Shown here piece after piece: positions 1,728 to 33,610 of a stretch of 35,116 bases of DNA; the stretch's first letter is position 1; the number at the start of each line of letters is the position of its first letter. The position numbers and the translations under genes are program-made. The stretch lies in the IMG/VR virus record IMGVR_UViG_2718218135_000003; one strand, written 5' to 3'. This DNA is from a virus. Lineage: Duplodnaviria > Heunggongvirae > Uroviricota > Caudoviricetes. Below the pieces are notes generated by a model. The model saw only the letters and a list, made by a program, of their open reading frames with translations, was not told the DNA's origin and did no database searches.

Positions 1728-1790
1728 ATGAAGGGAGATTCTATCGATGTGGTCAATGGAAGACGGTGACCAGGGATAGGGCTTATGCAT

Positions 1791-1817
1791 AAAAAATAAG
1801 CCCGTGTAAGGGAGATT
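1791..1817. repeat. attL: attL core: 27-bp direct repeat AAAAAATAAGCCCGTGTAAGGGAGATT
   Basis: Identical 27-mer at 33584-33610; lies just outside int on the left, the partner just outside ogr on the right, as expected for an integrated P2-type phage. Confidence 0.85.
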
Positions 1818-1896
1818 TAGGGTGTCACCAGTAGGGGCTTTCAACGGTACAATGCGGGTTTGAGCGGCATAAATTACCACTGAAAGCCCTTAAACG

Positions 1897-2910
1897 TTAC
1901 TCTACTGTGGACACGGTGTGGACACTCTCGGCTTCAGTACCACCTCTTAGCGGATTAAGAGAAATGGCGTCCTGAAGGTACTCTGGCGCAAAATGAGCGT
2001 AAACCATAGTTTGCTCAATCCGCGTGTGACCTAGTATCCGTTGTAGCGTGATAATACTTCCTCCATTAATCATGAAATGAGTGGCAAAGCTGTGCCTTAG
2101 TGCATGTGTGGCTTGCCCCGTTGGCAAATCCGGTTTTATTGCTTTCATTGTTCGTCTGAAGCGAGGGTAATCAGCATCAGGGAATAAAAAACCTCGTTTG
2201 TTATCCGCGATCATTTTGGCAACAGCCTCTGAGATCGGGACGGTGCGTGGTTTGTTTGTTTTCGTTTTAACAAACGTGACGCGGTTATGGATGATATTTT
2301 CTGCTTTCAAACGAGCTGCTTCTCCCCAACGTGCTCCTGTACTCAGGCAAAGAATCGCAATCTTTTTGTTGTCGCCGTCAAGTGCTGCAAGCAGTAAGGC
2401 AATTTCTTCCTGTGTGAGATAGCCTGTTTCTGGTTTTTCCTCCTTAAGCCTCTTTGTCCCTCTGATAGGGTGCTCACCAAAGAATAACTCCGCTTCAATC
2501 AGGGCTGTAAACATGCCGCTAATACATGTTAAATCACGATTGATACTCGAAGGTTTAATACCCTGACTTCTTCGGGTGGCGCAGTACTGGCTGATAAGGG
2601 ATTTCGTGATTTGAAATGCGCATGGGTCATTCGTTATTTTTGTGAAGATTTCAATTTTTCCAAGATTAGATTTCCCATGCTCTTCGTGTTTACCCTTTAA
2701 ATCCCACCAGATCTGTGTCAGTTCCGACAGACGTCGTTTGTCTGTTGGTTTTGATAGCCATTCTTTATTGTGGTGGTTGTACAACGTGTATTTTTCGAAA
2801 GCGACAGCTTCGCTTTTCTTATCAAACTTCCTACGGATGCGTTTTCCGTTACGTCCAGTAGGGCGGATGTCCACTTCATATCGACCATCATCGAGTTTTT
2901 TGATTGCCAT
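1897..2910 (-). CDS. int: P2-type integrase (tyrosine recombinase)
   Basis: 337 aa, same length as P2 Int; C-terminal catalytic residues (HxLRHSFATHF...GHTRIEQTMVYAH); position next to att core and C repressor. Confidence 0.9.
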   Translation of the reverse strand: MAIKKLDDGRYEVDIRPTGRNGKRIRRKFDKKSEAVAFEKYTLYNHHNKEWLSKPTDKRRLSELTQIWWDLKGKHEEHGKSNLGKIEIFTKITNDPCAFQITKSLISQYCATRRSQGIKPSSINRDLTCISGMFTALIEAELFFGEHPIRGTKRLKEEKPETGYLTQEEIALLLAALDGDNKKIAILCLSTGARWGEAARLKAENIIHNRVTFVKTKTNKPRTVPISEAVAKMIADNKRGFLFPDADYPRFRRTMKAIKPDLPTGQATHALRHSFATHFMINGGSIITLQRILGHTRIEQTMVYAHFAPEYLQDAISLNPLRGGTEAESVHTVSTVE

Positions 2911-3025
2911 CAGAAAACCCTCCGAGTGGTACTTTTTTTTGCTACTACTAATCGCTTTTTTCGTGGTGGCTGAAATTTAGCCACCAATAGTAGGCACTTG
3001 TGATGAATATATTCACGATAAATTG

Positions 3026-3325
3026 TTAACCAGTCTTTTGACCGGAGTGGGGCGACGTTGTTTCGTTTTGCCCAAAGTGTGCGAGAGCGGGCGCAATTTG
3101 CCCGGCTTCTGGAGCTACCTGATCAGTCATGAACCACAAAGTATATTTAGTAAATCTGGGATGTTGTAAGACCTTCATTATGGCTTCAACTCCAGCGTTT
3201 TTTGACCGGCTCTCATAGCTCGAAAGTGAGCTGTAGGCTACACCAGTTAATTCACTGAATTCTTTACGGTTTAACCTTTCAGATTCACGGATTAGCTTCA
3301 ACTTCTCCGAAACGTCTATTGACAT
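3026..3325 (-). CDS. C: Immunity repressor C (P2 C-like)
   Basis: 99 aa from internal ATG at 3325 (GGAG 6 nt upstream on minus strand); C-terminal half matches recalled P2 C (FTKYTLWFMTDQVAPEAGQIAPALAHFGQNETTSPHSGQKTG); divergent from cox. Confidence 0.85.
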   Translation of the reverse strand: MSIDVSEKLKLIRESERLNRKEFSELTGVAYSSLSSYESRSKNAGVEAIMKVLQHPRFTKYTLWFMTDQVAPEAGQIAPALAHFGQNETTSPHSGQKTG

Positions 3326-3402
3326 AATTACTCCGATTGCGTAATTTCTTGCTGATAGTGTGAAGTATTGTGCTTCTGGAGTTATCCTTTTAGGCAATAA
3401 TT

Positions 3403-3421
3403 AGCCATTAGGAGCCATTAG
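3403..3421. promoter_or_regulatory. Tandem direct repeats AGCCATTAG-g-AGCCATTAG in C/cox switch region (candidate operator half-sites)
   Basis: Two exact 9-mers at 10-bp spacing, followed by a degenerate third copy (AGCACTAAG), immediately upstream of cox; P2-type C repressors are known to bind direct repeats. No promoter elements confidently placed. Confidence 0.3.
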
Positions 3422-3446
3422 AAGCACTAAGGGAGAATCGTAGCAG

Positions 3447-3722
3447 ATGAATAGACAGCTTGTAAGCGTGACTGATGCCGTGCCTTATCAGGAGTTTGCA
3501 AAACTCATTGGTAAAACTCCAAGAGCTGTAAGGGGCATGATTGAGAAAGGGAAATTACCAGTTATTGAGATTACTGACCCTCAGTCAGTATCGGGGCGTG
3601 CTGGTGAATATTGGGTATACCTTCCGGCATGGAATAACGGACTAAAACTGGCTTATGAAAGCCGTCCTAAAGAAATTCGTGACGGCTGGTTGATGTGGTT
3701 AGGTCTCGGTGAACCACGTTAA
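3447..3722 (+). CDS. cox: Cox (excisionase / lytic-switch repressor)
   Basis: 91 aa, near-identical over most of its length to recalled P2 Cox (AVPYQEFAKLIGK...GRAGEYWVYLPAWNNGLKLAYESRPKEIRDGWLMWLGLGEPR). Confidence 0.9.
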   Translation: MNRQLVSVTDAVPYQEFAKLIGKTPRAVRGMIEKGKLPVIEITDPQSVSGRAGEYWVYLPAWNNGLKLAYESRPKEIRDGWLMWLGLGEPR

Positions 3723-3732
3723 GGAGAACCGT

Positions 3733-3903
3733 ATGAATGAGCCTCGTTGTATTGCTCAGTTATTGCGTAACGAAAGCCCCAGGGCGATTGACTTCACCAT
3801 CACCCACGGTAAGGGGCGTAAGGGAATCATTATCCGCACCAAAAAACAGAGTCCGTTAAAAAAGGCTCTGACCTTTCTGAAAAGCCGGAGGGTCTGGAAA
3901 TGA
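3733..3903 (+). CDS. Small early-operon protein (P2 orf78 position), hypothetical
   Basis: 56 aa from ATG at 3733 preceded by AAGGAG; basic protein; position between cox and B. Confidence 0.5.
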   Translation: MNEPRCIAQLLRNESPRAIDFTITHGKGRKGIIIRTKKQSPLKKALTFLKSRRVWK

Positions 3904-4400
3904 CAGTGATGACGCTCAATCTCGTTGAAAAACAGCCAGCAGCTATGCGCCGGATAATTGGTAAGCATCTGGCCGTCCCTCGCTGGCAGGAGACATGCGA
4001 TTATTATAATCAGATGATGGAACGCGAACGGCTAACGGTTTGCTTCCATGCGCAGTTAAAACAGCGTCACGCAACGATGCGTTTTGAAGAAATGAACGAC
4101 GTCGAACGTGAACGGCTGGTTTGTGCAATTGATGAACTGCGTGGGGCATTCTCAAAACGCCGTCAGGTCGGTGCAAGTGAGTATGCATATATTAGCTTTT
4201 TAACTGTCAGTCAGCGCCGTACTTTATTTATGCATGCCGGATTGACTGAAAAAGAATTCAACCAGCCATACTGGCGAATTAATGAAGAATCATGTTACTG
4301 GCGTGATGCCTTATTCCGTGCATTACGTGAATTATTCAGCCTGTTTGAGTATGCACCGACAATTCTGACGTCGGTAAAACCAGAGCAATATCTGCATTAA
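3900..4400 (+). CDS. B: Replication protein B (DnaB-helicase loader of P2)
   Basis: 166 aa, same length and position as P2 B; overlaps previous stop (ATGA). Confidence 0.8.
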   Translation: MTVMTLNLVEKQPAAMRRIIGKHLAVPRWQETCDYYNQMMERERLTVCFHAQLKQRHATMRFEEMNDVERERLVCAIDELRGAFSKRRQVGASEYAYISFLTVSQRRTLFMHAGLTEKEFNQPYWRINEESCYWRDALFRALRELFSLFEYAPTILTSVKPEQYLH

Positions 4401-4463
4401 GTAATTAACCAGAGTTTTTAACGCACTTAATTGTGCGGGGCTTCTTTTTGCCTGGAGAAAGTC

Positions 4464-4688
4464 ATGCATACAGTTTCTGAAAATCAGTGCGGTAAATACG
4501 CATTACTGCTGCAACAGGCCAGAACCGAAGCACAGGCCGACGCAGCGACGCGCTTTTCTTCTCATCTTGACGCCATGATTCGCCACATCACAAAGGCGGA
4601 GTTATCCCGCGTAGAGATAGTCGAGCTGCTCAGTCAGGAGTCGGAAAAATTTCACAATATCGGATTGTCTCGCGGGGAGGTGCTTTGA
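4464..4688 (+). CDS. Small early-operon protein (P2 orf80 position), hypothetical
   Basis: 74 aa from ATG at 4464 with GGAGAAAGTC upstream; earlier in-frame ATG lacks a ribosome-binding site. Confidence 0.5.
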
Positions 4689-5008
4689 TGTCCTGTTCTC
4701 ATTCAGTTGTATTACTGAATAACGCCTTAAAAATCGCCGTTATGAAAAATGGCGATTTGTCTCTTATTCAACTTTGTCTTGATAAAGAAAAACGCGACAT
4801 CACTGAATCTGTTATCGCGATTTATCAGAATGAATTAAACCTCCTGTCTGATGTGGTCAATTTACTTGTTAAACGCGCTGTATTCCACAAGCAAATTTCC
4901 TCAGTGGATGAACTGACAAAATTAACGACAGAACTTGCCAGTTATTGCGCTGATGTATCCAGGAAACTTAACGATAAAAGGGGTGATGCTGCCAACTTAC
5001 TGATTTAG
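4685..5008 (+). CDS. Early-operon hypothetical protein (P2 orf81 position); 3' end altered by IS1
   Basis: ORF runs into IS1 at 4982; last 8 codons (GDAANLLI) are IS1 sequence. Splicing out IS1 and one TSD copy gives ...NDKRS-stop. Confidence 0.5.
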
Positions 5009-5036
5009 TGTATGATGGTGTTTTTGAGGTGCTCCT

Positions 5037-5312
5037 GTGGCTTCTGTTTCTATCAGCTGTCCCTCCTGTTCAGCTACTGACGGGGTGGTGCGTAACGGCA
5101 AAAGCACTGCCGGACATCAGCGCTATCTCTGCTCTCACTGCCGTAAAACATGGCAACTGCAGTTCACTTACACCGCTTCTCAACCCGGTACGCACCAGAA
5201 AATCATTGATATGGCCATGAATGGCGTTGGATGCCGGGCAACCGCCCGCATTATGGGCGTTGGCCTCAACACGATTTTACGTCACTTAAAAAACTCAGGC
5301 CACAGTCGGTAA
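5037..5312 (+). CDS. insA: IS1 InsA (transposition regulator; N-terminal part of InsAB' transposase)
   Basis: 91 aa [37 protein letters not shown]... matches recalled IS1 InsA; A6C slippery tract (A_AAA_AAC, 5288-5294) near its end. Confidence 0.9.
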
Positions 5313-5734
5313 CCTCGCGCATACAGCCGGGCAGTGATGTGATTGTCTGCGCTGAAATGGACGAACAGTGGGGATACGTCGGGGCTAAATCGCACCAGCG
5401 CTGGCTGTTTTACGCGTATGACAGGCTCCGGAAGACGGTTGTTGCGCACGTATTCGGTGAACGCACTATGGCGACACTGGAGCGTCTTCTGAGCCTGCTG
5501 TCGGCCTTTGAGGTCGTGGTATGGATGACGGATGGCTGGCCGCTGTATGAATCCCGCCTGAAGGGAAAGCTGCACGTAATCAGCAAGCGATATACGCAGC
5601 GAATTGAGCGGCATAACCTGAATCTGAGGCAGCACCTGGCACGGCTGGGACGGAAGTCGCTGTCGTTCTCAAAATCGGTGGAGCTGCATGACAAAGTCAT
5701 CGGGCATTATCTGAACATAAAACACTATCAATAA
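5231..5734 (+). CDS. insB: IS1 InsB reading frame (expressed as InsAB' by -1 frameshift)
   Basis: 167-aa frame matching recalled IS1 InsB, overlapping insA in the -1 frame. Confidence 0.85.
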
Positions 5735-5765
5735 GTTGGAGTCATTACCATAAAAGGAGCTGATA

Positions 5766-5990
5766 ATGCCGGATAACGTAGATTTTATTCAGGAACAACA
5801 GGCTGAATTACTGGAGCGCCAGATTAACGCGGCAAGGGTAAAACATTGCGGTGCTTCTGCGCTGGTTTGCGAAGAGTGTGACGCGCCAATACCTGCTGCC
5901 CGTCGTGCGGCTTATCCGTCAGCCACGCGTTGTGTTTCCTGTCAGTCAGTCTTTGAAGCAAAAAACAAACATTACCGGAGAACGGCATGA
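5766..5990 (+). CDS. TraR/DksA-type C4 zinc-finger protein (P2 orf82 position)
   Basis: 74 aa with CxxC...CxxC (CEECDAPIPAARRAAYPSATRCVSCQ); AGGAG ribosome-binding site lies in the right-hand TSD copy. Confidence 0.7.
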   Translation: MPDNVDFIQEQQAELLERQINAARVKHCGASALVCEECDAPIPAARRAAYPSATRCVSCQSVFEAKNKHYRRTA

Positions 5991-6262
5991 GTATTCGTAT
6001 TGAAATTGGCGAACGTTATGTCGTTACCAGTGACAGCTTTCAGTTTATTCTCCACGAGAAAAAGAGAGCGGAAAGCGGTAAAAACGCCGGTCAGGAATGG
6101 CTGTCGGTGGTTGGTTATTACCCGAAATTAAGCCAGCTCGTTTCCGGCCTGATGCATCACGATATTCTGACCGGAAGCGCAAAGTCTTTTGCTGATTTAA
6201 ACGTGCAGGTTGAGCAACTCAGCAAGCGTTGTTCAGAGGCTTTTGGCTCATATGGCCGTTAA
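5987..6262 (+). CDS. Early-operon hypothetical protein (P2 orf83 position)
   Basis: 91-aa ORF overlapping neighbours by ATGA and by 11 nt with A; no recognisable motif. Confidence 0.5.
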   Translation: MSIRIEIGERYVVTSDSFQFILHEKKRAESGKNAGQEWLSVVGYYPKLSQLVSGLMHHDILTGSAKSFADLNVQVEQLSKRCSEAFGSYGR

Positions 6263-8528
6263 AGCCTCCGGGCGTTTTGTCCCTCCGTCAGCATTTGCCG
6301 CAGGCACCGGTAAGGCGTTTACCGGTGCTTATGCATGGAACGCGCCACGCGAGGCTGTCGGGCGCGAAAGACCCCTTACACGTGACGAGATGCGTCAGGT
6401 GCAAGGTGTTTTATCCACGATTAACCGCCTGCCTTACTTTTTGCGCTCGCTGTTTACGTCACGCTATGACTACATCCGGCGCAATAAAAGCCCGGTGCAC
6501 GGGTTTTATTTTCTCACATCCACTTTTCAGCGTCGTTTATGGCCGCGCATTGAGCGTGTGAATCAGCGCCATGAAATGAACACCGACGCGTCGTTGCTGT
6601 TTCTGGCAGAGCGTGACCATTATGCGCGTCTGCCGGGGATGAATGACAAGGAGCTGAAAAAGTTTGCCGCCCGTATCTCATCGCAGCTTTTCATGATGTA
6701 TGAGGAACTCTGCGATGCCTGGGTGGATGCGCATGGCGAAAAAGAATCGCTGTTTACGGATGAGGCGCAGGCTCACCTGTATGGTCATGTTGCTGGCGCT
6801 GCACGTGCTTTCAATATTTCCCCGCTCTACTGGAAAAAATACCGTAAAGGACAGATGACCACGAGGCAGGCATATTCTGCCATTGCCCGCCTGTTTAACG
6901 ATGAGTGGTGGACTCATCAGCTTAAAGGCCAGCGTATGCGCTGGCATGAGGCGTTACTGATTGCTGTCGGGGAGGTCAATAAAGACCGTTCTCCTTATGC
7001 CAGTAAACATGCCATTCGTGATGTGCGTGCACGCCGCCAGGCAAATCTGGAATTTCTTAAATCGTGTGACCTTGAAAACAGGGAAACCGGCGAGCGCATC
7101 GACCTTATCAGTAAGGTGATGGGCAGTATTTCTAATCCTGAAATTCGCCGGATGGAGCTGATGAACACCATTGCCGGTATTGAGCGTTACGCCGCCGCAG
7201 AGGGTGATGTGGGGATGTTTATCACGCTGACCGCGCCGTCAAAGTATCACCCGACACGTCAGGTCGGAAAAGGCGAAAGTAAAACCGTCCAGCTAAATCA
7301 CGGCTGGAACGATGAGGCATTTAATCCAAAGGATGCGCAGCGTTATCTCTGCCGTATCTGGAGCCTGATGCGCACGGCATTCAAGGATAATGATTTACAG
7401 GTCTACGGTTTGCGTGTCGTCGAGCCACACCACGACGGAACACCGCACTGGCATATGATGCTTTTTTGTAATCCACGCCAGCGTAACCAGATTATCGAAA
7501 TCATGCGTCGCTATGCGCTCAAAGAGGATGGCGACGAAAGAGGTGCCGCGCGAAACCGTTTTCAGGCAAAACACCTTAACCGGGGTGGTGCTGCGGGGTA
7601 TATCGCTAAATACATCTCAAAAAATATCGACGGCTATGCACTGGATGGTCAGCTCGATAACGATACCGGCAGGCCGCTTAAAGATACTGCCGCGGCTGTT
7701 ACCGCATGGGCGTCAACGTGGCGCATCCCGCAATTTAAAACGGTTGGTCTGCCGACAATGGGGGCTTACCGTGAACTACGCAAATTGCCTCGTGGCGTCA
7801 GCATTGCTGATGAGTTTGACGAACGCGTCGAGGCTGCACGCGCCGCCGCAGACAGTGGTGATTTTGCGTTGTATATCAGCGCGCAGGGTGGGGCAAATGT
7901 TCCGCGCGATTGTCAGACTGTCAGGGTTGCCCGTAGCCCGTCGGATGACGTTAACGAGTACGAGGAAGAAGTCGAGAGAGTGGTCGGCATTTACGCGCCG
8001 CATCTCGGCGCGCGTCATATTCATATCACCAGAACGACGGACTGGCGCATTGTTCCGAAAGTGCCGGTCGTTGAGCCTTTGACTTTAAAAAGCGGCATCG
8101 CCGCGCCTCGGAGTCCTGTCAATAACTGTGGAAAGCTCACCGGTGGTGATACTTCGTTACCGGCTCCCACACCTTCTGAGCACGCCGCAGCAGTGCTTAA
8201 TCTGGTAGATGACGGTGTTATCGAATGGAATGACCAGGAGGTCGTGAGGGCGCTCAGAGGTGCATTAAAACACGGTCTGAGAAGACCAAACCGTCAGCAA
8301 AGAAACGGAAGCCCGTTAAAACCGCATGAAATAGCGCCATCGGCCAGACTGACCCGGTCGGAACGAATGCAAATTACCCGTATCCGCGTTGACCTTGCTC
8401 AGAACGGTATCAGGCCACAGCGATGGGAGCTTGAGGCGCTGGCGCGTGGCGCGACCGTAAATTATGACGGGGAAAAATTCACGTATCCGGTCGCTGATGA
8501 GTGGCCGGGATTCTCAACAAACATATAA
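6252..8528 (+). CDS. A: Replication initiation protein A (rolling-circle nicking endonuclease)
   Basis: 758 aa from ATG at 6252 (MAVKASGRF...), close to P2 A in length and recalled sequence; the 772-aa ORF in the track begins at TTG. Confidence 0.9.
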   Translation: MAVKASGRFVPPSAFAAGTGKAFTGAYAWNAPREAVGRERPLTRDEMRQVQGVLSTINRLPYFLRSLFTSRYDYIRRNKSPVHGFYFLTSTFQRRLWPRIERVNQRHEMNTDASLLFLAERDHYARLPGMNDKELKKFAARISSQLFMMYEELCDAWVDAHGEKESLFTDEAQAHLYGHVAGAARAFNISPLYWKKYRKGQMTTRQAYSAIARLFNDEWWTHQLKGQRMRWHEALLIAVGEVNKDRSPYASKHAIRDVRARRQANLEFLKSCDLENRETGERIDLISKVMGSISNPEIRRMELMNTIAGIERYAAAEGDVGMFITLTAPSKYHPTRQVGKGESKTVQLNHGWNDEAFNPKDAQRYLCRIWSLMRTAFKDNDLQVYGLRVVEPHHDGTPHWHMMLFCNPRQRNQIIEIMRRYALKEDGDERGAARNRFQAKHLNRGGAAGYIAKYISKNIDGYALDGQLDNDTGRPLKDTAAAVTAWASTWRIPQFKTVGLPTMGAYRELRKLPRGVSIADEFDERVEAARAAADSGDFALYISAQGGANVPRDCQTVRVARSPSDDVNEYEEEVERVVGIYAPHLGARHIHITRTTDWRIVPKVPVVEPLTLKSGIAAPRSPVNNCGKLTGGDTSLPAPTPSEHAAAVLNLVDDGVIEWNDQEVVRALRGALKHGLRRPNRQQRNGSPLKPHEIAPSARLTRSERMQITRIRVDLAQNGIRPQRWELEALARGATVNYDGEKFTYPVADEWPGFSTNI

Positions 8529-8977: not shown

Positions 8978-9021
8978 GCTTAACGAAGTCATGTTGAGTT
9001 AATAACATTTTTTCGTTAAGC
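8978..9021. other. Long hairpin overlapping the RT stop codon (10-bp perfect stem, 24-nt loop with nested 5-bp stem)
   Basis: GCTTAACGAA (8978-8987) and TTCGTTAAGC (9012-9021) are exact reverse complements; inner ATGTT/AACAT pair at 8991-8995/9004-9008. Possible bidirectional terminator or structured RNA. Confidence 0.4.
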
Positions 9022-10559
9022 GCTGTGTTCCTTGTCGAATAAGTTCACTTCTTCTGGTGTAATATCATTATCCATTTCTTCGAATGCATCTAAATCCACA
9101 ATTTTTGTTTTTTTCAAAATTGATAGTATTTTCTGTTTGTTTTTACTTTTGGCTGAACCCGGAATCCACTCTACATCCCACAGGCCATCAATGGTAAATG
9201 TTTTTTTTCCCTTGAGTTCATCATTTATGCGTTGACATAGGGCTGTTTTGTAATCGCCTTCCCATTGTGTGTGTATCTTCCCTTGAACTCGTTGAAACCA
9301 AATATCTAACATTTCAGTATTTGGTTGTTTACCTAGTTTACAATGAAGTTGTTGTAACTTGCCAAATTTGAGTTCATCGTCGTCATAAAGGAAGGTCAAG
9401 AGTTTTGCGAAAATAGCCATTCCCACTGGGTAGGTGGTTGGGTTTTTAGCCATGATGCTTGAAATAATTCCAAGCATTGCATCTAGTTGATGCCCACTAT
9501 TTGTGATCTTTTTCTTCCTAAATAATTTTCGCAAGAAATCATTTAAATATCTAACTGTAATTTTGGAGTTTTGATGTTTTAAAGAAAATAAATATATTGC
9601 ATACAACATTTTCTGTAGGGAGTTGAACGACTTTTCTATAATATATTCTTTTTTTGCTGATTTAAGGGAGTGAAGAATGATGTCGTCATGTAGTTCTGTT
9701 TTTCTTGAGTTTAAATCAAGCCCAAACTCACCTAAGACCTCAACCAAACACTTTGAGATTTTGTCCAAATCATCTTTACTGCTTGAAAATATTCGATAAT
9801 CATCTCTGTAGCGAACTACTTTGTAATCCGTTATTTTTTGCTCTTCGGTTTTTTTCTTAGCTGTAAATCAATTTCGCCTAAAATTAATTCGGCAAATGTA
9901 TCCATCAACGTACTACCCAATGGTATTCCGTTTGTCTGATTACTCATCATCATCTGGATATGAGTGTCAATCAATCGTCCTGGGTTATTGTTATTTTCTT
10001 TCTTTTTGGCCTCTTCTTTTGAGATGAATACCCATTCAAAGCTATGAGTGTAAATAGAAGGGTAGAAGTTTGAAATATCTGTGCTGAACATGAACTCATA
10101 CTCAAGAGCCAATGAAAGACTTTTTTGTTCAAAATCTTCCCACCAGTTTAAAACAGATGCAGCTACGTTTGAGGTGTTCTTTTTGCTCACTGGGATACTT
10201 GAGCATAAAAAAAGATCATTAGACTCAAACTCTCTAAATTTATTCCTTATAGCATTCCAGTTGGAAGAGGATGTAATAAGTTTACAAAAATACACGTAGT
10301 ATAGAGGATTAATTAGTGTTATTCGTCGCCAGCTATATAAGCCATCTTTGCTGACTAAAACCTCGTAATTTATATTCTTCCCCATCAATGACTTGGAGTC
10401 AGGTTGGAAGTTGATTTTACCTTCATCTATCGCGGAGTTGATTTCTTCAAGCAAGGAAGAAAAATCGACATAACTGGGTAGCTCCAGAGTAGTGTATGAA
10501 TCATGCTGCAGAAAATACTTAAGCGCTCTACCAGTAGTTAATTCATAAATCTTTTTCAT
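9016..10559 (-). CDS. Abi-type reverse transcriptase (AbiK/Abi-P2-like), interrupted by a -1 frame change at an A7 tract (9849-9855); fused product about 514 aa
   Basis: N-terminal frame carries RT-like motifs (FSTDISNFYPSIYTHS; GIPLGSTLMDTFAELIL); the frame opening 5 codons upstream of its stop carries VVRYRDDYRIF (YxDD). AT-rich relative to flanks. Start at ATG 10559 (MKKIYELT) is an estimate. Confidence 0.7.
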
Positions 10560-10784: not shown

Positions 10785-10925
10785 TGCGCGCTGACGGTGG
10801 TGCTGATTGTATTTTTTCAGCGTCTCAGCGCGTCGTGACGGCACTTAGTCTGCCCGTTGAGGCGTTGTGTGTCTGCGGGGTGTTTTGTGCGGTGGTGAGC
10901 GTGTGAGGGGGGGGGATGACGGGGT

Positions 10926-19690: not shown

Positions 19691-20141
19691 GTTTAAGCGT
19701 TTTGAAGACCGGCTGACCGGACTGATTGAGTCGCTGTCACCGTCAGGGCGTCGGCGACTGGCGGTAGATATTGCGAAGAAGCTGCGCCAGCGCCAGCAGC
19801 AGCGAATTAAATTACAAAAAGCCCCGGATGGTACGCCGTATGTACCGAGAAAAAACCAACCAGTACGAAATAAGAAAGGCCGGATAAAGCGGGAAATGTT
19901 TGTGAAATTACGCACTAACCGGTTTATGAAAGCAACAGGTAGCGAGAGTGCGGCGGTGGTGGCGTTTGCCAGCGGAGTACAACGAATTGCGCGAGTACAT
20001 CAATTAGGGCTTAGGGATAAGCCGGGGCGTAATAGTGCTGTGGTGGAATATCCTGTTCGTGAGTTATTTGGTTTTGACAAGGAATCTATACAATTGATAG
20101 AAAGGGAGTTATTAGTGATTCTATCGAAAGATGTTATATGA
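19683..20141 (+). CDS. S: Tail completion protein S (3' portion compositionally atypical)
   Basis: 152 aa; N-terminal part matches recalled P2 S (MNEFKRFEDRLTGLIESLSPSGRRR); sequence from about 19850 is AT-richer, like the downstream cargo gene. Confidence 0.7.
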   Translation: MNEFKRFEDRLTGLIESLSPSGRRRLAVDIAKKLRQRQQQRIKLQKAPDGTPYVPRKNQPVRNKKGRIKREMFVKLRTNRFMKATGSESAAVVAFASGVQRIARVHQLGLRDKPGRNSAVVEYPVRELFGFDKESIQLIERELLVILSKDVI

Positions 20142-20893
20142 GACGGGTGTTTGTGGATAAAAAGTTTTCCATTTTGAGAAAAAGAGTAAAGCATTCTCAA
20201 AAGAAAGTTATGGATTGTATTATTGCTGACCATAATGCTGATATATGTGTGTTATGCGGGAGTTCTGACGATATTACTCGTGAGCACATTATTCCTCAGT
20301 GGGCCTTTGAGTCAAATGCTGAAAAATCTTTAATTAATAAAAAGAATAATCAGTCAACTCATTACATTAAAGCCACTGTACCAGCATGCAGAGTGTGCAA
20401 TTCTGATTTGCTGGGAGTGTTTGAGTATAACCTGAAGAAATTTCTTACGGAAAAGAGAGGGGAGGAGTTAACAGATTATGAGTATGATTGCATCATATGG
20501 TGGTTGCAATACATGGGTTTTAAGTTGCAATTAATGGATTTGCGGAACCGCTTTCTCAGGTATAAAGGTGGTGATTATATCCCGTTTCTTGCAAACTTCC
20601 CGGTTGCAATGTTTTGGGGGAATGTCGATACGACGCCGGGGGATGTCTTCAGGATTATACGAAAATCGCGACGCAATCTGATGTCGAAATGGAAGGATAA
20701 AAAACATAATTCTTTGATGGTTTTTGAAACATCAAACAAGAGTTTTCATTTCTTTCATAAGGTTGATGAATTTATTTTTATTGAAATTCCTCAGGTTAAG
20801 AAGGCGTTTTTCTTCTTTTTTAATAAAGAATTTGACAGCCATGATTTAGCTCATGAGGAGTGTATGAAGATTATAGAGAAGTGCTACAACTAA
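20138..20893 (+). CDS. Cargo gene between S and V: putative HNH-family nuclease (CxxC...EHIIP...CxxCN), unknown function
   Basis: 251 aa, strongly AT-rich and Lys/Phe/Asn-rich, unlike flanking tail genes; ICVLCGSSDDITREHIIPQWAFE ... PACRVCNSDL resembles an HNH zinc-finger core; ATG overlaps the S stop (ATGA); no counterpart in P2. Confidence 0.6.
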   Translation: MRRVFVDKKFSILRKRVKHSQKKVMDCIIADHNADICVLCGSSDDITREHIIPQWAFESNAEKSLINKKNNQSTHYIKATVPACRVCNSDLLGVFEYNLKKFLTEKRGEELTDYEYDCIIWWLQYMGFKLQLMDLRNRFLRYKGGDYIPFLANFPVAMFWGNVDTTPGDVFRIIRKSRRNLMSKWKDKKHNSLMVFETSNKSFHFFHKVDEFIFIEIPQVKKAFFFFFNKEFDSHDLAHEECMKIIEKCYN

Positions 20894-23467: not shown

Positions 23468-24642
23468 CAGTGAAATACTACGCCATTCTGACTAATCAGG
23501 GCGCAGCACGGCTGGCTAACGCGACGATGCTCGGCAGTAAGCTGAATCTGACGCAAATGGCCGTTGGTGATGCGAATGGTGTCTTGCCGACACCAGACCC
23601 GGCACAGACAAAACTGATTAACCAGAAACGCATCGCGCCGCTGAATCTTCTGAGTGTTGACCCGAACAACCAGAGCCAGATTATTGCGGAGCAAATCATC
23701 CCTGAGAACGAGGGCGGATTCTGGATCCGTGAGATTGGGCTTTATGATGATGAAGGCGTACTCATTGCGGTGGCGAACTGCCCGGAAACGTACAAACCGC
23801 AGTTGCAGGAAGGCAGTGGTCGTACCCAGACTATCCGCATGATTCTGGTTGTCACGAATACCGAAGCTATTACGCTGAAAATCGACCCGTCGGTGGTACT
23901 GGCGACCCGTAAATACGTGGATGATGAAGTCCTGGAATTAAGGCTGTATGTGGATGACCAGATGAGAAACCACATTGCCGCACAGGATCCTCATACCCAG
24001 TATGCACAGAAATATAATCCGACATTTACCGGAGAACCAAAAGCGCCGACGCCTGCCGCAGGGAATAACACCACGCGGATTGCGACCACTGAGTTTGTTC
24101 AGGCCGCTATTACCGCTCTGATTAACGGTGCGCCAGCCACGCTGGACACACTGAAAGAAATTGCCGCAGCCATTAACAATGACCCGAAATTCAGTACCAC
24201 CATTAACAATGCGCTGTCAGGTAAGCAGCCACTGGATGAGACGCTGACTCATTTGAGTGGAAAGGATGTTGCCGGTCTTCTCGCATACCTTGGTTTGGGA
24301 GAAGCGGCTAAAAGGAATGTAGGGACAGGGGCGAATCAGATACCTGATATGGGTAGCTTCACGCTTTCTGTTTCAGGTACTGGATATCAAAAATTACCAT
24401 CAGGTTTTATTCTTCAGTGGGGCTCAATCGGCGCACCAGGCATTGCACAGGATGTAGTAACCCATTTTCCGATTGCATTTCCAAACAGATGTCTGCGTGT
24501 TTTGGTCTCACAAGACTACACACCAGATAGCGGGGCTGTTGGTTATATTGCCTGCGCAGGTTTTAGTGCCGACCCGGTTAAATTTATATCCAGAGCCAGT
24601 ACTCCTGGCCTCGGCGCTTCATTTTTAGCGTTAGGCTGTTAA
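23464..24642 (+). CDS. H: Tail fibre protein H (constant N-terminal part plus currently expressed variable C-terminal segment)
   Basis: 392 aa; N-terminus resembles the conserved tail-fibre N-termini of P2 H / Mu S / P1 S; a crossover site lies in-frame at 24278-24303. Confidence 0.8.
24278..24303. repeat. 26-bp recombination (crossover) site, left boundary of invertible tail-fibre segment
   Basis: TTCTCGCATACCTTGGTTTGGGAGAA; its right 14 bp are the exact inverted copy of the partner at 26146-26171; imperfect palindrome resembling hix/gix/cix sites. Confidence 0.7.
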
Positions 24643-24663
24643 TTTAGCTATATGGAGTGAAAA

Positions 24664-25104
24664 ATGAATTACATATATTCCGCGACTACAAACTCTTTCT
24701 ATCCGCTGGAGATGAAAGAGGATTACACTCAAGCTGACTCATGGCCAGATGATGCTGTTGAAGTTGATGAGCAAGCGTATATTGAGTTTTCCGGATTACC
24801 GCCGAAAGGAAAAATCCGTATCGCTGGAGAAAATGGTTTTCCTGCATGGTCCGAAATTCCACCACCAACACATGAGGAACAAATTGCTGCAGCCGAACTG
24901 GAGAAGCAGCAATTGATTAATCAGGCCAACGATTATATGAACAGTAAACAATGGCCTGGTAAAGCGGCTATTGGTCGTCTGAAAGGTGACGAACTGGCGC
25001 AATATAATTTGTGGCTGGATTACCTGGACGCACTGGAACTGGTCGATACTTCCGGTGCGCCAGATATTGAATGGCCTACGCCTCCGGCAGTTCAGGCCAG
25101 ATGA
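24664..25104 (+). CDS. G: Tail fibre assembly protein G (chaperone for the expressed fibre variant)
   Basis: 146 aa directly after H; P2 G position; conserved C-terminal region of tail-fibre assembly proteins. Confidence 0.75.
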   Translation: MNYIYSATTNSFYPLEMKEDYTQADSWPDDAVEVDEQAYIEFSGLPPKGKIRIAGENGFPAWSEIPPPTHEEQIAAAELEKQQLINQANDYMNSKQWPGKAAIGRLKGDELAQYNLWLDYLDALELVDTSGAPDIEWPTPPAVQAR

Positions 25105-25678
25105 CATCCGGCGCGGTGCTCGTATCTGTTGCCGTCACCGCGTCAATGTAATCCAGCACAGCGTTAAGTCGGGTGGTTTCTGCCTGCGTCAGCTTCCGCC
25201 CGGCCTGCAATTTCAGTTGAATCAGACTGATGGAAGCCATTGCAGTATCAATCAGTGACTGACGCAGTGCTTCTGCCGCGTCTACTGCGGCGCTATGCTG
25301 TGCCTCAGTATCGGTCACCCATTTCTTACCATCCCATTTATCGAATGGCGTTAACGGGGCGATAGTGGTTGTATTTTCAGGATAATCACCCGGAGCTGTG
25401 ATTTCTTTGGCGTCTCCCGTTTCGGTGTTATAGACGATTTCACCGCGATGGTCTGGCACATATTCCCATGAGTTTAAATCCATCGAACGGCAGATAGCAT
25501 AACCCGCCTTATGTATACCAGGTTCATCCAGACAGGAATATGCAGGGATACCGACACCAATGGCAAGATATTCATTTGAAGTAGAAATATATTCCCGAGT
25601 TTTACCATCATAGTTATAGACGGTAATATTCCCCGCCTTCGTGGCAATAAGCTCGCTATTTAATACGGCGTTATCCAT
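25076..25678 (-). CDS. Alternative tail fibre assembly protein (G') in the silent orientation
   Basis: 200 aa on the opposite strand inside the invertible segment; tail-fibre-assembly-like C-terminus; start overlaps the stop of the alternative fibre segment. Confidence 0.65.
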   Translation of the reverse strand: MDNAVLNSELIATKAGNITVYNYDGKTREYISTSNEYLAIGVGIPAYSCLDEPGIHKAGYAICRSMDLNSWEYVPDHRGEIVYNTETGDAKEITAPGDYPENTTTIAPLTPFDKWDGKKWVTDTEAQHSAAVDAAEALRQSLIDTAMASISLIQLKLQAGRKLTQAETTRLNAVLDYIDAVTATDTSTAPDVIWPELPEA

Positions 25679-26160
25679 TATGCAGCCCTCACGATATAGT
25701 TAAATGCAATATTTCGTGGACGGGTTTCACTCCCGCCAGTATTACCGATACTCCCTCGTGAATGAAGTGTCGGTGATGGGATCAGACTCCCTCCTGTATT
25801 TGCGGCATCAAGTCCCCGTCCTTGTGTGTATGTCTTTTTGAAAATCGTAGCCAGTTCCCATTCATCTTTTGTGTCGTAACCATCATTGGCAACAACAATA
25901 TGGCGGTGTTTTTCCAGCATCCCTGTCTGAATGCTCAATAAAACACGTCCTGCATCAATACCGCGCCCGTCATCCCAGCCACGAATAAACTCACCACGTA
26001 AATCAGGCAATTTATTTGTCGGATAAGCCTTTGCCAGTTCCGGGTATTCTTCAGCAGAAAAAGCCGCACCGTTGCATTTCAGCCAGCCTGTTGGCGGTGT
26101 GGCTGAAGGCCATGGAACAGGCACACCAACAGGTAATGCAGAGCCTTCTCCCAAACCAAC
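25678..26160 (-). CDS. Alternative tail-fibre C-terminal segment (Hv'), no own start; fused in-frame to H only after inversion
   Basis: Minus-strand frame reads ...LGLGE-GSALPVGVPVPWPSATPPTGWLKCNGAAFSAEEYPELAKAYP..., a motif typical of Mu S / P1 S / lambda Stf receptor-binding ends; the shared LGLGE codons lie in the crossover site. Confidence 0.6.
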   Translation of the reverse strand, partial: VGLGEGSALPVGVPVPWPSATPPTGWLKCNGAAFSAEEYPELAKAYPTNKLPDLRGEFIRGWDDGRGIDAGRVLLSIQTGMLEKHRHIVVANDGYDTKDEWELATIFKKTYTQGRGLDAANTGGSLIPSPTLHSRGSIGNTGGSETRPRNIAFNYIVRAA

Positions 26161-26171
26161 GTTTATGAAAA
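26146..26171. repeat. 26-bp recombination (crossover) site, right boundary of invertible segment
   Basis: TTCTCCCAAACCAACGTTTATGAAAA, closely similar to the hixL sequence as I recall it; inverted partner of 24278-24303. Confidence 0.7.
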
Positions 26172-26226
26172 TGCAGAGATAACGGGCAACTGGCATCATC
26201 TCCGGTTTTTATTCAGGGGGATGCTC

Positions 26227-26820
26227 ATGCTTATTGGCTATGTACGCGTGTCAACAAATGACCAGAACACGGAATTGCAGCGTAACGCGCTGGAGTGCGC
26301 AGGATGCGAGCGGATTTTTGAGGATAAAATCAGCGGCACGAAGTCCGACCGACCGGGACTGAAAAAACTGCTCAGAACATTATCAGCAGGTGACACTCTG
26401 GTAGTCTGGAAGCTGGACCGGCTGGGGCGTAGTATGCGGCATCTGGTCATTCTGGTTGAGGAGCTGCGCGAACGCGGCGTTAATTTTCGCAGCCTGACAG
26501 ATGCTATTGATACCAGCACGCCGATGGGGCGTTTTTTCTTTCATGTGATGGGTGCCCTGGCTGAAATGGAGCGAGAACTCATTGTCGAGCGGACACGCGC
26601 TGGACTGGAAGTGGCCAGAGCCAAAGGGCGTATTGGTGGCAGACGTCCGAAGCTCACCGGGAGTGAGTGGGAGCAGGCCGGGCGGTTGCTGGCTGCGGGG
26701 GAATCTCGTCAACGTGTGGCGCTGATTTTTGATATTGGCCTGTCCACGCTCTATAAAAAATTCCCCTCATCAGCGACAAAGAATAAATTGTGTCATCCCT
26801 TAGCCAACCGGGACAAATAG
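26227..26820 (+). CDS. pin: Site-specific DNA invertase (serine recombinase, Pin/Gin/Cin/Hin family)
   Basis: MLIGYVRVSTNDQNTELQRNALECAGCERIFEDKISGT...VVWKLDRLGRSM... matches recalled Pin/Gin; start at 26227 is 6 nt after a GGGGG ribosome-binding site. Confidence 0.85.
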   Translation: MLIGYVRVSTNDQNTELQRNALECAGCERIFEDKISGTKSDRPGLKKLLRTLSAGDTLVVWKLDRLGRSMRHLVILVEELRERGVNFRSLTDAIDTSTPMGRFFFHVMGALAEMERELIVERTRAGLEVARAKGRIGGRRPKLTGSEWEQAGRLLAAGESRQRVALIFDIGLSTLYKKFPSSATKNKLCHPLANRDK

Positions 26821-33520: not shown

Positions 33521-33583
33521 TCGATGTGGTCAATGTGTGGACGTGACCAGAAATAAATCCTTTTATTTCATTGTATTACGCGT

Positions 33584-33610
33584 AAAAAATAAGCCCGTGT
33601 AAGGGAGATT
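33584..33610. repeat. attR: attR core: second copy of the 27-bp repeat AAAAAATAAGCCCGTGTAAGGGAGATT
   Basis: Exact duplicate of 1791-1817, downstream of ogr. Confidence 0.85.

Follow-up and report, generated by a model that had tools for sequence, protein, structure and literature searches.

The early operon of a P2-like prophage of Escherichia coli, contained in the window considered here (the whole 35,116-nt stretch of DNA), is interrupted by a complete IS1 element flanked by an 8-bp target duplication, and other E. coli genomes contain the exact empty site. The arrangement very probably arose when an IS1 copy of the host genome recently moved by simple transposition into the resident prophage, with a proposed polar effect on the phage replication gene A. 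Such an insertion is already known in kind as ordinary IS-mediated prophage decay, and nothing in it departs from known biology; only the 8-bp length of the duplication is unusual, and this rarer form is itself documented. In the following, the prophage and the element are described, and the consequences that the insertion may have for expression of A are then weighed together with the alternative readings.

The host prophage

The prophage is P2-like (Peduovirus), is otherwise complete and is sited between yegR and trhP. It is bounded by two 28-bp att cores, which give it a length of 31.8 kb including IS1. The gene order (int, C, cox, orf78-like, B, orf80, orf81, orf82, orf83 and A), obtained from Pfam matches and the annotated P2 record, comprises both the Cox-type excisionase-repressor and the GPA rolling-circle initiator that mark the early region of a P2-like phage. 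The late gene set is full and, from the portal gene to ogr, collinear with that of the prophage of E. coli ECE313. The features outside IS1 to which reference is made below are:

1790–1817: attL core, 28 bp, TAAAAAATAAGCCCGTGTAAGGGAGATT
3101–3397, minus strand: immunity repressor C, 99 aa, HTH_3
3447–4688, plus strand: upstream early operon, with cox (3447–3722), an orf78-like gene, B (3900–4400) and orf80 (DUF2732; 4464–4688)
4688–5008, plus strand: orf81-position gene (DUF5405), with the C-terminal Ser replaced by the IS1-encoded GDAANLLI
5766–5990, plus strand: orf82-position gene (TraR/DksA C4 zinc finger), the first gene downstream of IS1
5987–6262, plus strand: orf83-position gene (DUF5405)
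6252–8528, plus strand: replication gene A, 758 aa, Phage_GPA, intact
9016–10559, minus strand: abiP2, with a lesion at about 9842–9848 (A7 instead of A8)
33583–33610: attR core, 28 bp, identical to attL

In comparison with bacteriophage P2, the same gene order and the same gene families are found, the nucleotide identity is 94–97% over both cox–orf81 and orf82–A, and a 28-bp repeat, the att core, is likewise present at both prophage ends. The differences from P2 are three, namely the immunity region (3155–3469), which gives no alignment, the variable locus, where AbiP2 is found instead of the orf91-tin-old genes of P2, and the interruption of the early operon by IS1. The phage is probably heteroimmune to P2.

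An almost exact sibling without IS1 is the prophage of ECE313, which is integrated at the same att site. The two do not differ at any position over 1775–4981; a patch of 28 substitutions, probably a recombination mosaic, is present in gene A (6779–8063), two single-base homopolymer indels are found (9848 and 10907), and the late region shows scattered substitutions and zero indels. Since this IS1-free prophage is almost identical to the present one, the insertion is judged to be recent. A protein identical to A is also encoded in the draft genome GCA_026012255.1, the early operon of which is IS1-free.

The cargo of the variable locus is an AbiP2 reverse transcriptase, of 514 aa when intact (PADLOC AbiP2, E = 3e-160). 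Other P2-like prophages are known to carry AbiP2 at this variable locus, and protection against T5 has been reported (PMC9226505). In the sequence given, a 1-nt deletion splits the gene into open reading frames of 284 and 250 aa just before the YRDD motif, and once one A is added the 514-aa product matches WP_000725496.1 of ECE313 exactly. The frameshift may reflect either a sequencing error in the homopolymer or a recent loss of function of the gene. A second homopolymer, the intergenic G-run at 10899–10907 between abiP2 and the portal gene, has one extra G with respect to ECE313, and the two indels may hint at long-read assembly errors. The original prediction had the prophage still carrying defence cargo, a description that does not fit an abiP2 gene frameshifted (A7 versus A8) as it stands, with the proviso that the missing base may be a homopolymer error.

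The IS1 element

The element consists of the following parts:

4982–5749, plus strand: complete IS1, exactly 768 bp, its transposase genes oriented like the phage early operon
4982–5004, plus strand: left terminal inverted repeat (IRL), reading GGTGATGCTGCCAACTTACTGAT
4989–5016, plus strand: promoter-like site, CTGCCA-16-TATGAT, overlapping IRL at the position of the weak promoter of IS1 itself
5037–5312, plus strand: insA, GTG start, 91 aa, repressor/DNA-binding part
5231–5734, plus strand: insB frame, in the -1 phase and overlapping insA
5288–5294, plus strand: AAAAAAC (A6C), slip site of the -1 frameshift
5727–5749, minus strand: right terminal inverted repeat (IRR), the reverse complement of which reads GGTAATGACTCCAACTTATTGAT

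The coordinates and the IS1 features of the original prediction (the 768 bp, insA, insB, the A6C site at 5288–5294 and both repeats) were, on re-reading, borne out in every instance. The defining features of IS1 are a length of 768 bp, repeats of about 30 bp, a weak promoter (PIS1) that overlaps IRL, the A6C site and a target duplication of 8 or 9 bp (PMC12428005). The present element agrees with the family in its length, its repeats, its insA and insB frames with the slip site, and its duplication with the corresponding empty site. IRL and IRR agree at 18 of 23 positions, and both termini are identical to the ends of K-12 IS1A. When the -1 shift is modelled, the frame is open throughout and a 232-aa InsAB' is predicted; InsA matches Zn_ribbon_InsA and HTH_Tnp_IS1, and InsB matches DDE_Tnp_IS1 with E = 4e-75 (Pfam). 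The site at 4989–5016 is the sole promoter-like match nearby on the plus strand in a promoter scan.

With respect to K-12 IS1A, 20 nucleotide differences are found (97.4% identity), as against 61 (92.1%) with respect to IS1F. All the differences from IS1A lie between the first 54 and the last 230 nt, which leaves both ends of the element canonical. InsA carries one substitution (R88H) and InsAB' seven amino acid differences. Thus, the element is like IS1A and the IS1 isoforms of Escherichia coli and Shigella in its 768 bp, termini, insA, A6C site, insB frame, DDE_Tnp_IS1 domain and duplication of the 8–9-bp class, and unlike IS1A in those nucleotide and InsAB' changes. The closest IS1 copy among 5,426 complete E. 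coli genomes (strain a7) is 99.6% identical, and 61 records carry a copy that is at least 99% identical; the present copy is one of the common isoforms. Open frames are no proof of an active element, and in K-12, appreciable transposition has been found for consensus IS1 copies only (PMC12428005).

Target duplication and empty site

The two copies of the duplicated target abut the element on either side:

4974–4981: left copy of the duplicated 8-bp target, ATAAAAGG
5750–5757: right copy of ATAAAAGG, which also rebuilds the Shine–Dalgarno sequence of orf82

A match of 8 bp at two fixed positions is expected by chance with p ~1.5e-5. A 9-bp duplication was considered and rejected, the adjoining bases being different on both sides (left G versus C, right G versus A). 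The 8-bp duplication is the rarer form for IS1, 9 bp being found in three of the four other insertions that were compared (see below).

The empty site was rebuilt by removing IS1 and one copy of the repeat, i.e. by joining 4400–4981 to 5758–6400, which gives 1225 bp. This sequence is matched at 100.0% in three complete E. coli genomes (LR-71-1, ECE313 and GZ2408C), and it occurs at 95% identity or more in about 1,670 records; about 1,680 genomes carry the region. It is also matched by 95 phage records, in which the site is uninterrupted, with no IS1 inside, among the matches listed. The insertion is taken to be a true transposition because the empty site is fully preserved in the three genomes and uninterrupted in the matching phage records listed, and we consider the exact empty-site match to be decisive in this respect, beyond chance. 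The presence of an intact IS1 with an 8-bp duplication inside the early operon, as originally predicted, is therefore confirmed by both copies of the repeat, and the claim that it arrived by transposition, not by rearrangement, is upheld by the duplication together with the three exact empty sites. The comparison with IS1-free homologues that had been suggested as a check of the empty site was in this way carried out, and located it with full identity over the 1225 bp.

In this transposition, the two target strands were cut by the IS1 transposase 8 bp apart at ATAAAAGG, a site made up of the final sense codons of the orf81-like gene together with part of the orf82 ribosome-binding site. IS1 was joined in the orientation of the early operon, and repair of the gaps duplicated the 8 bp.

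Layout of the interrupted early operon

The insertion point lies one sense codon (Ser) ahead of the orf81 stop codon. The uninterrupted homologue ends in ...LNDKRS*, and the tail of the orf81-like protein is here lengthened by seven residues through IS1. The predicted replacement of Ser by GDAANLLI is correct when set against this IS1-free homologue; of the accompanying statement that IS1 had landed 2 codons before the natural stop, the description of the fusion stands, and strictly one sense codon precedes the stop.

About 760 bp of foreign DNA are now found between the early promoter Pe and the orf82, orf83 and A genes, and the tight packing of orf81 and orf82 is broken. Pe, cox, B, orf80 and orf81 are left on one side of IS1 and orf82, orf83 and A on the other, so that the split of the early promoter from the zinc-finger gene, the orf83-position gene and A, as had been claimed, is in accord with the gene order of the annotated P2 record. 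The Shine–Dalgarno sequence of orf82 (AAAGGAG, 5753–5759) is regenerated by the duplication. The approximately 450 nt from the insA stop to the orf82 start (5313–5765) are translated only after the rare frameshift.

Upstream of IS1, a hairpin with a T-rich tail is present at 4422–4437, between B and orf80, where the P2 record annotates a putative rho-independent terminator. Read-through at this upstream point may already be required for expression of A.

Uniqueness and recurrence

The same insertion is found in none of the 5,426 complete E. coli genomes, and the same junction is absent from the species-representative genomes (one per species across bacteria). The fusion protein, looked up with two alternative starts, has no exact record among 153 billion gene positions. 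As judged from these collections, the insertion is a recent singleton. Four other complete E. coli genomes, on the other hand, have IS1 in the early region of a related P2-like prophage, each through an independent insertion:

GPEC996: IS1 at the 5' end of orf81, same orientation as the operon, 9-bp duplication
IHE3034: IS1 between orf80 and orf81, opposite orientation, 9-bp duplication
B1.H1.1: IS1 in cox, same orientation, 9-bp duplication
LH10-b-1: IS1 in A, with the rest of the prophage lost, same orientation, no duplication

These insertions share the early region with the present one, and all lie at different positions, as independent events. Three are co-directional with the operon and one is reversed, a set (n = 4) too small for an orientation bias to have meaning. 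Four genomes in about 1,680, all with different sites, is what the random hopping of an abundant element predicts, and the distribution as read from these genomes is one with no hotspot and no sign of selection. The literature on IS1 in P2-like prophages yielded solely IS1 insertions in host genes, from work on E. coli HS, that have no bearing on the present case.

Expression of gene A and alternative readings

Classical genetics describes strong polarity for IS1 insertions in either orientation, and Hubner, Iida and Arber reportedly found a terminator within the element in 1987. In P2, the A protein acts mainly in cis. With the element in place, transcription from Pe would be partly terminated in the poorly translated stretch of IS1, less of the cis-acting initiator A would be made after derepression and, as a consequence, phage replication and yield would be reduced or lost, an outcome towards which we incline on balance. 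As to the size of the effect, a substantial polarity is somewhat favoured, and a mild one is conceivable at a clearly lower probability. A is annotated in the P2 record as essential and as nicking the origin, itself situated within the A gene. Integration, immunity and excision genes and all the late genes would be left intact, and the insertion would most simply represent a neutral early step of prophage decay. It would cost the host nothing, because Pe is repressed in the lysogen.

The sequence itself gives no support for polarity, as the scans found neither an intrinsic terminator nor a C-rich Rho-loading stretch on the plus strand inside IS1. The poorly translated stretch at 5313–5765 is instead G-rich (C/G 0.75), which is atypical of Rho-loading sites. 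These features favour the reading that the insertion is real and nearly silent, with Pe reading through IS1, orf82, orf83 and A being translated from ribosome-binding sites that are kept, and a viable IS1-bearing phage being made; this reading is a tentative one, less probable than a polar effect. It is favoured also by the intact Shine–Dalgarno sequence of orf82 and by reporter experiments, in which transcription from outside enters IS1 and PIS1 transcripts reach lacZ placed after IS1 (PMC12428005). Furthermore, the size of the prophage with IS1 is below the 33.6 kb of P2, so that packaging would be no obstacle. Against near silence, the 95 matching phage genomes are, among the matches listed, free of IS1 in the region, and the classical polarity and the terminator reported within the element point the same way. 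Whichever the extent of polarity, some expression of A is likely to remain, because no plus-strand terminator is found, the untranslated stretch is G-rich, the orf82 Shine–Dalgarno sequence is kept and both read-in and read-out are seen with reporters.

Promoters within or at the edge of IS1 were also considered as sources of A. A hybrid outward promoter at the right end gave no hit in the scan. On inspection, TTGGAG (5736–5741) is 20 nt away from GATAAT (5762–5767), which is too far; GATAAT as a -10 element, in addition, overlaps the ATG of orf82, and the candidate was rejected. It is very unlikely that the promoter at IRL (4989–5016), which is outside the control of phage C and points towards orf82, orf83 and A, drives a constitutive trickle of A in the lysogen under InsA control. 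If it did, low-level in situ replication or nicking at the prophage origin would be possible, and expression of A might respond to IS1 regulation.

A different view of the same insertion is that it was selected, as a domestication that locks the prophage in place and lets the host keep useful genes without the risk of lysis. The recurrence of IS1 in the P2-like early operon of four other complete genomes could be taken in its favour, but each of those events is a singleton at a different site, at a rate that random hopping would give, and the present insertion is shared with no other genome. There is, moreover, almost no divergence from the IS1-free siblings, and the sole recognisable defence gene is itself frameshifted here. 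Selection is thus disfavoured and regarded as improbable, and the earlier description of the prophage as partly domesticated is left without population support by a singleton that is absent from the complete genomes and from the species-representative ones. The insertion could also be an assembly artefact, or a variant of a subpopulation that arose in culture and became fixed in the consensus. This is most improbable: although the two homopolymer indels suggest an error-prone long-read assembly and IS1 is multicopy in most E. coli, a mis-join would not yield a perfect 8-bp duplication at both IS1 termini together with an exact empty site. Recent transposition of a host IS1 copy, with the proposed polarity on A, is therefore the explanation retained.

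Inducibility and implications

P2-type immunity is classically non-inducible. No protease domain was detected by Pfam in the repressor C of this prophage, and no extra gene is present between ogr and attR. Two preprints give conflicting accounts of how readily DuoHS, the P2-like prophage in E. coli HS, can be induced. Mitomycin C induction may be uninformative as a readout for this prophage because of the repressor with no protease domain detected, the non-inducible character of P2-type immunity and the conflicting DuoHS preprints.

For the strain, the prediction is that of a P2-like prophage impaired in replication, the AbiP2 of which may be inactive. This would be relevant to attempts at inducing, curing or exploiting the prophage, and to automated counts of ‘intact’ prophages and defence systems. 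The significance is otherwise local: the case adds to the known examples of IS-mediated prophage decay, and no new question is opened by it.

Other loci of the prophage

Two further loci were noted. Between the S-like and V-like genes, at the position of P2 orf30, a gene of 251 aa is found (20138–20893), which is present also in ECE313 and has no significant match in Pfam or PADLOC; it may be a moron. At 24278–26820 there is an apparent invertible tail-fibre segment, in which a serine recombinase (26221–26820; Resolvase and HTH_7) adjoins 27-nt inverted sites at 24278–24304 and 26145–26171. The inverted sites bracket an alternative fibre C-terminus (25678–26199, minus strand) and two oppositely oriented tail-fibre assembly genes, an arrangement that resembles a host-range switch of the Gin/Cin type.
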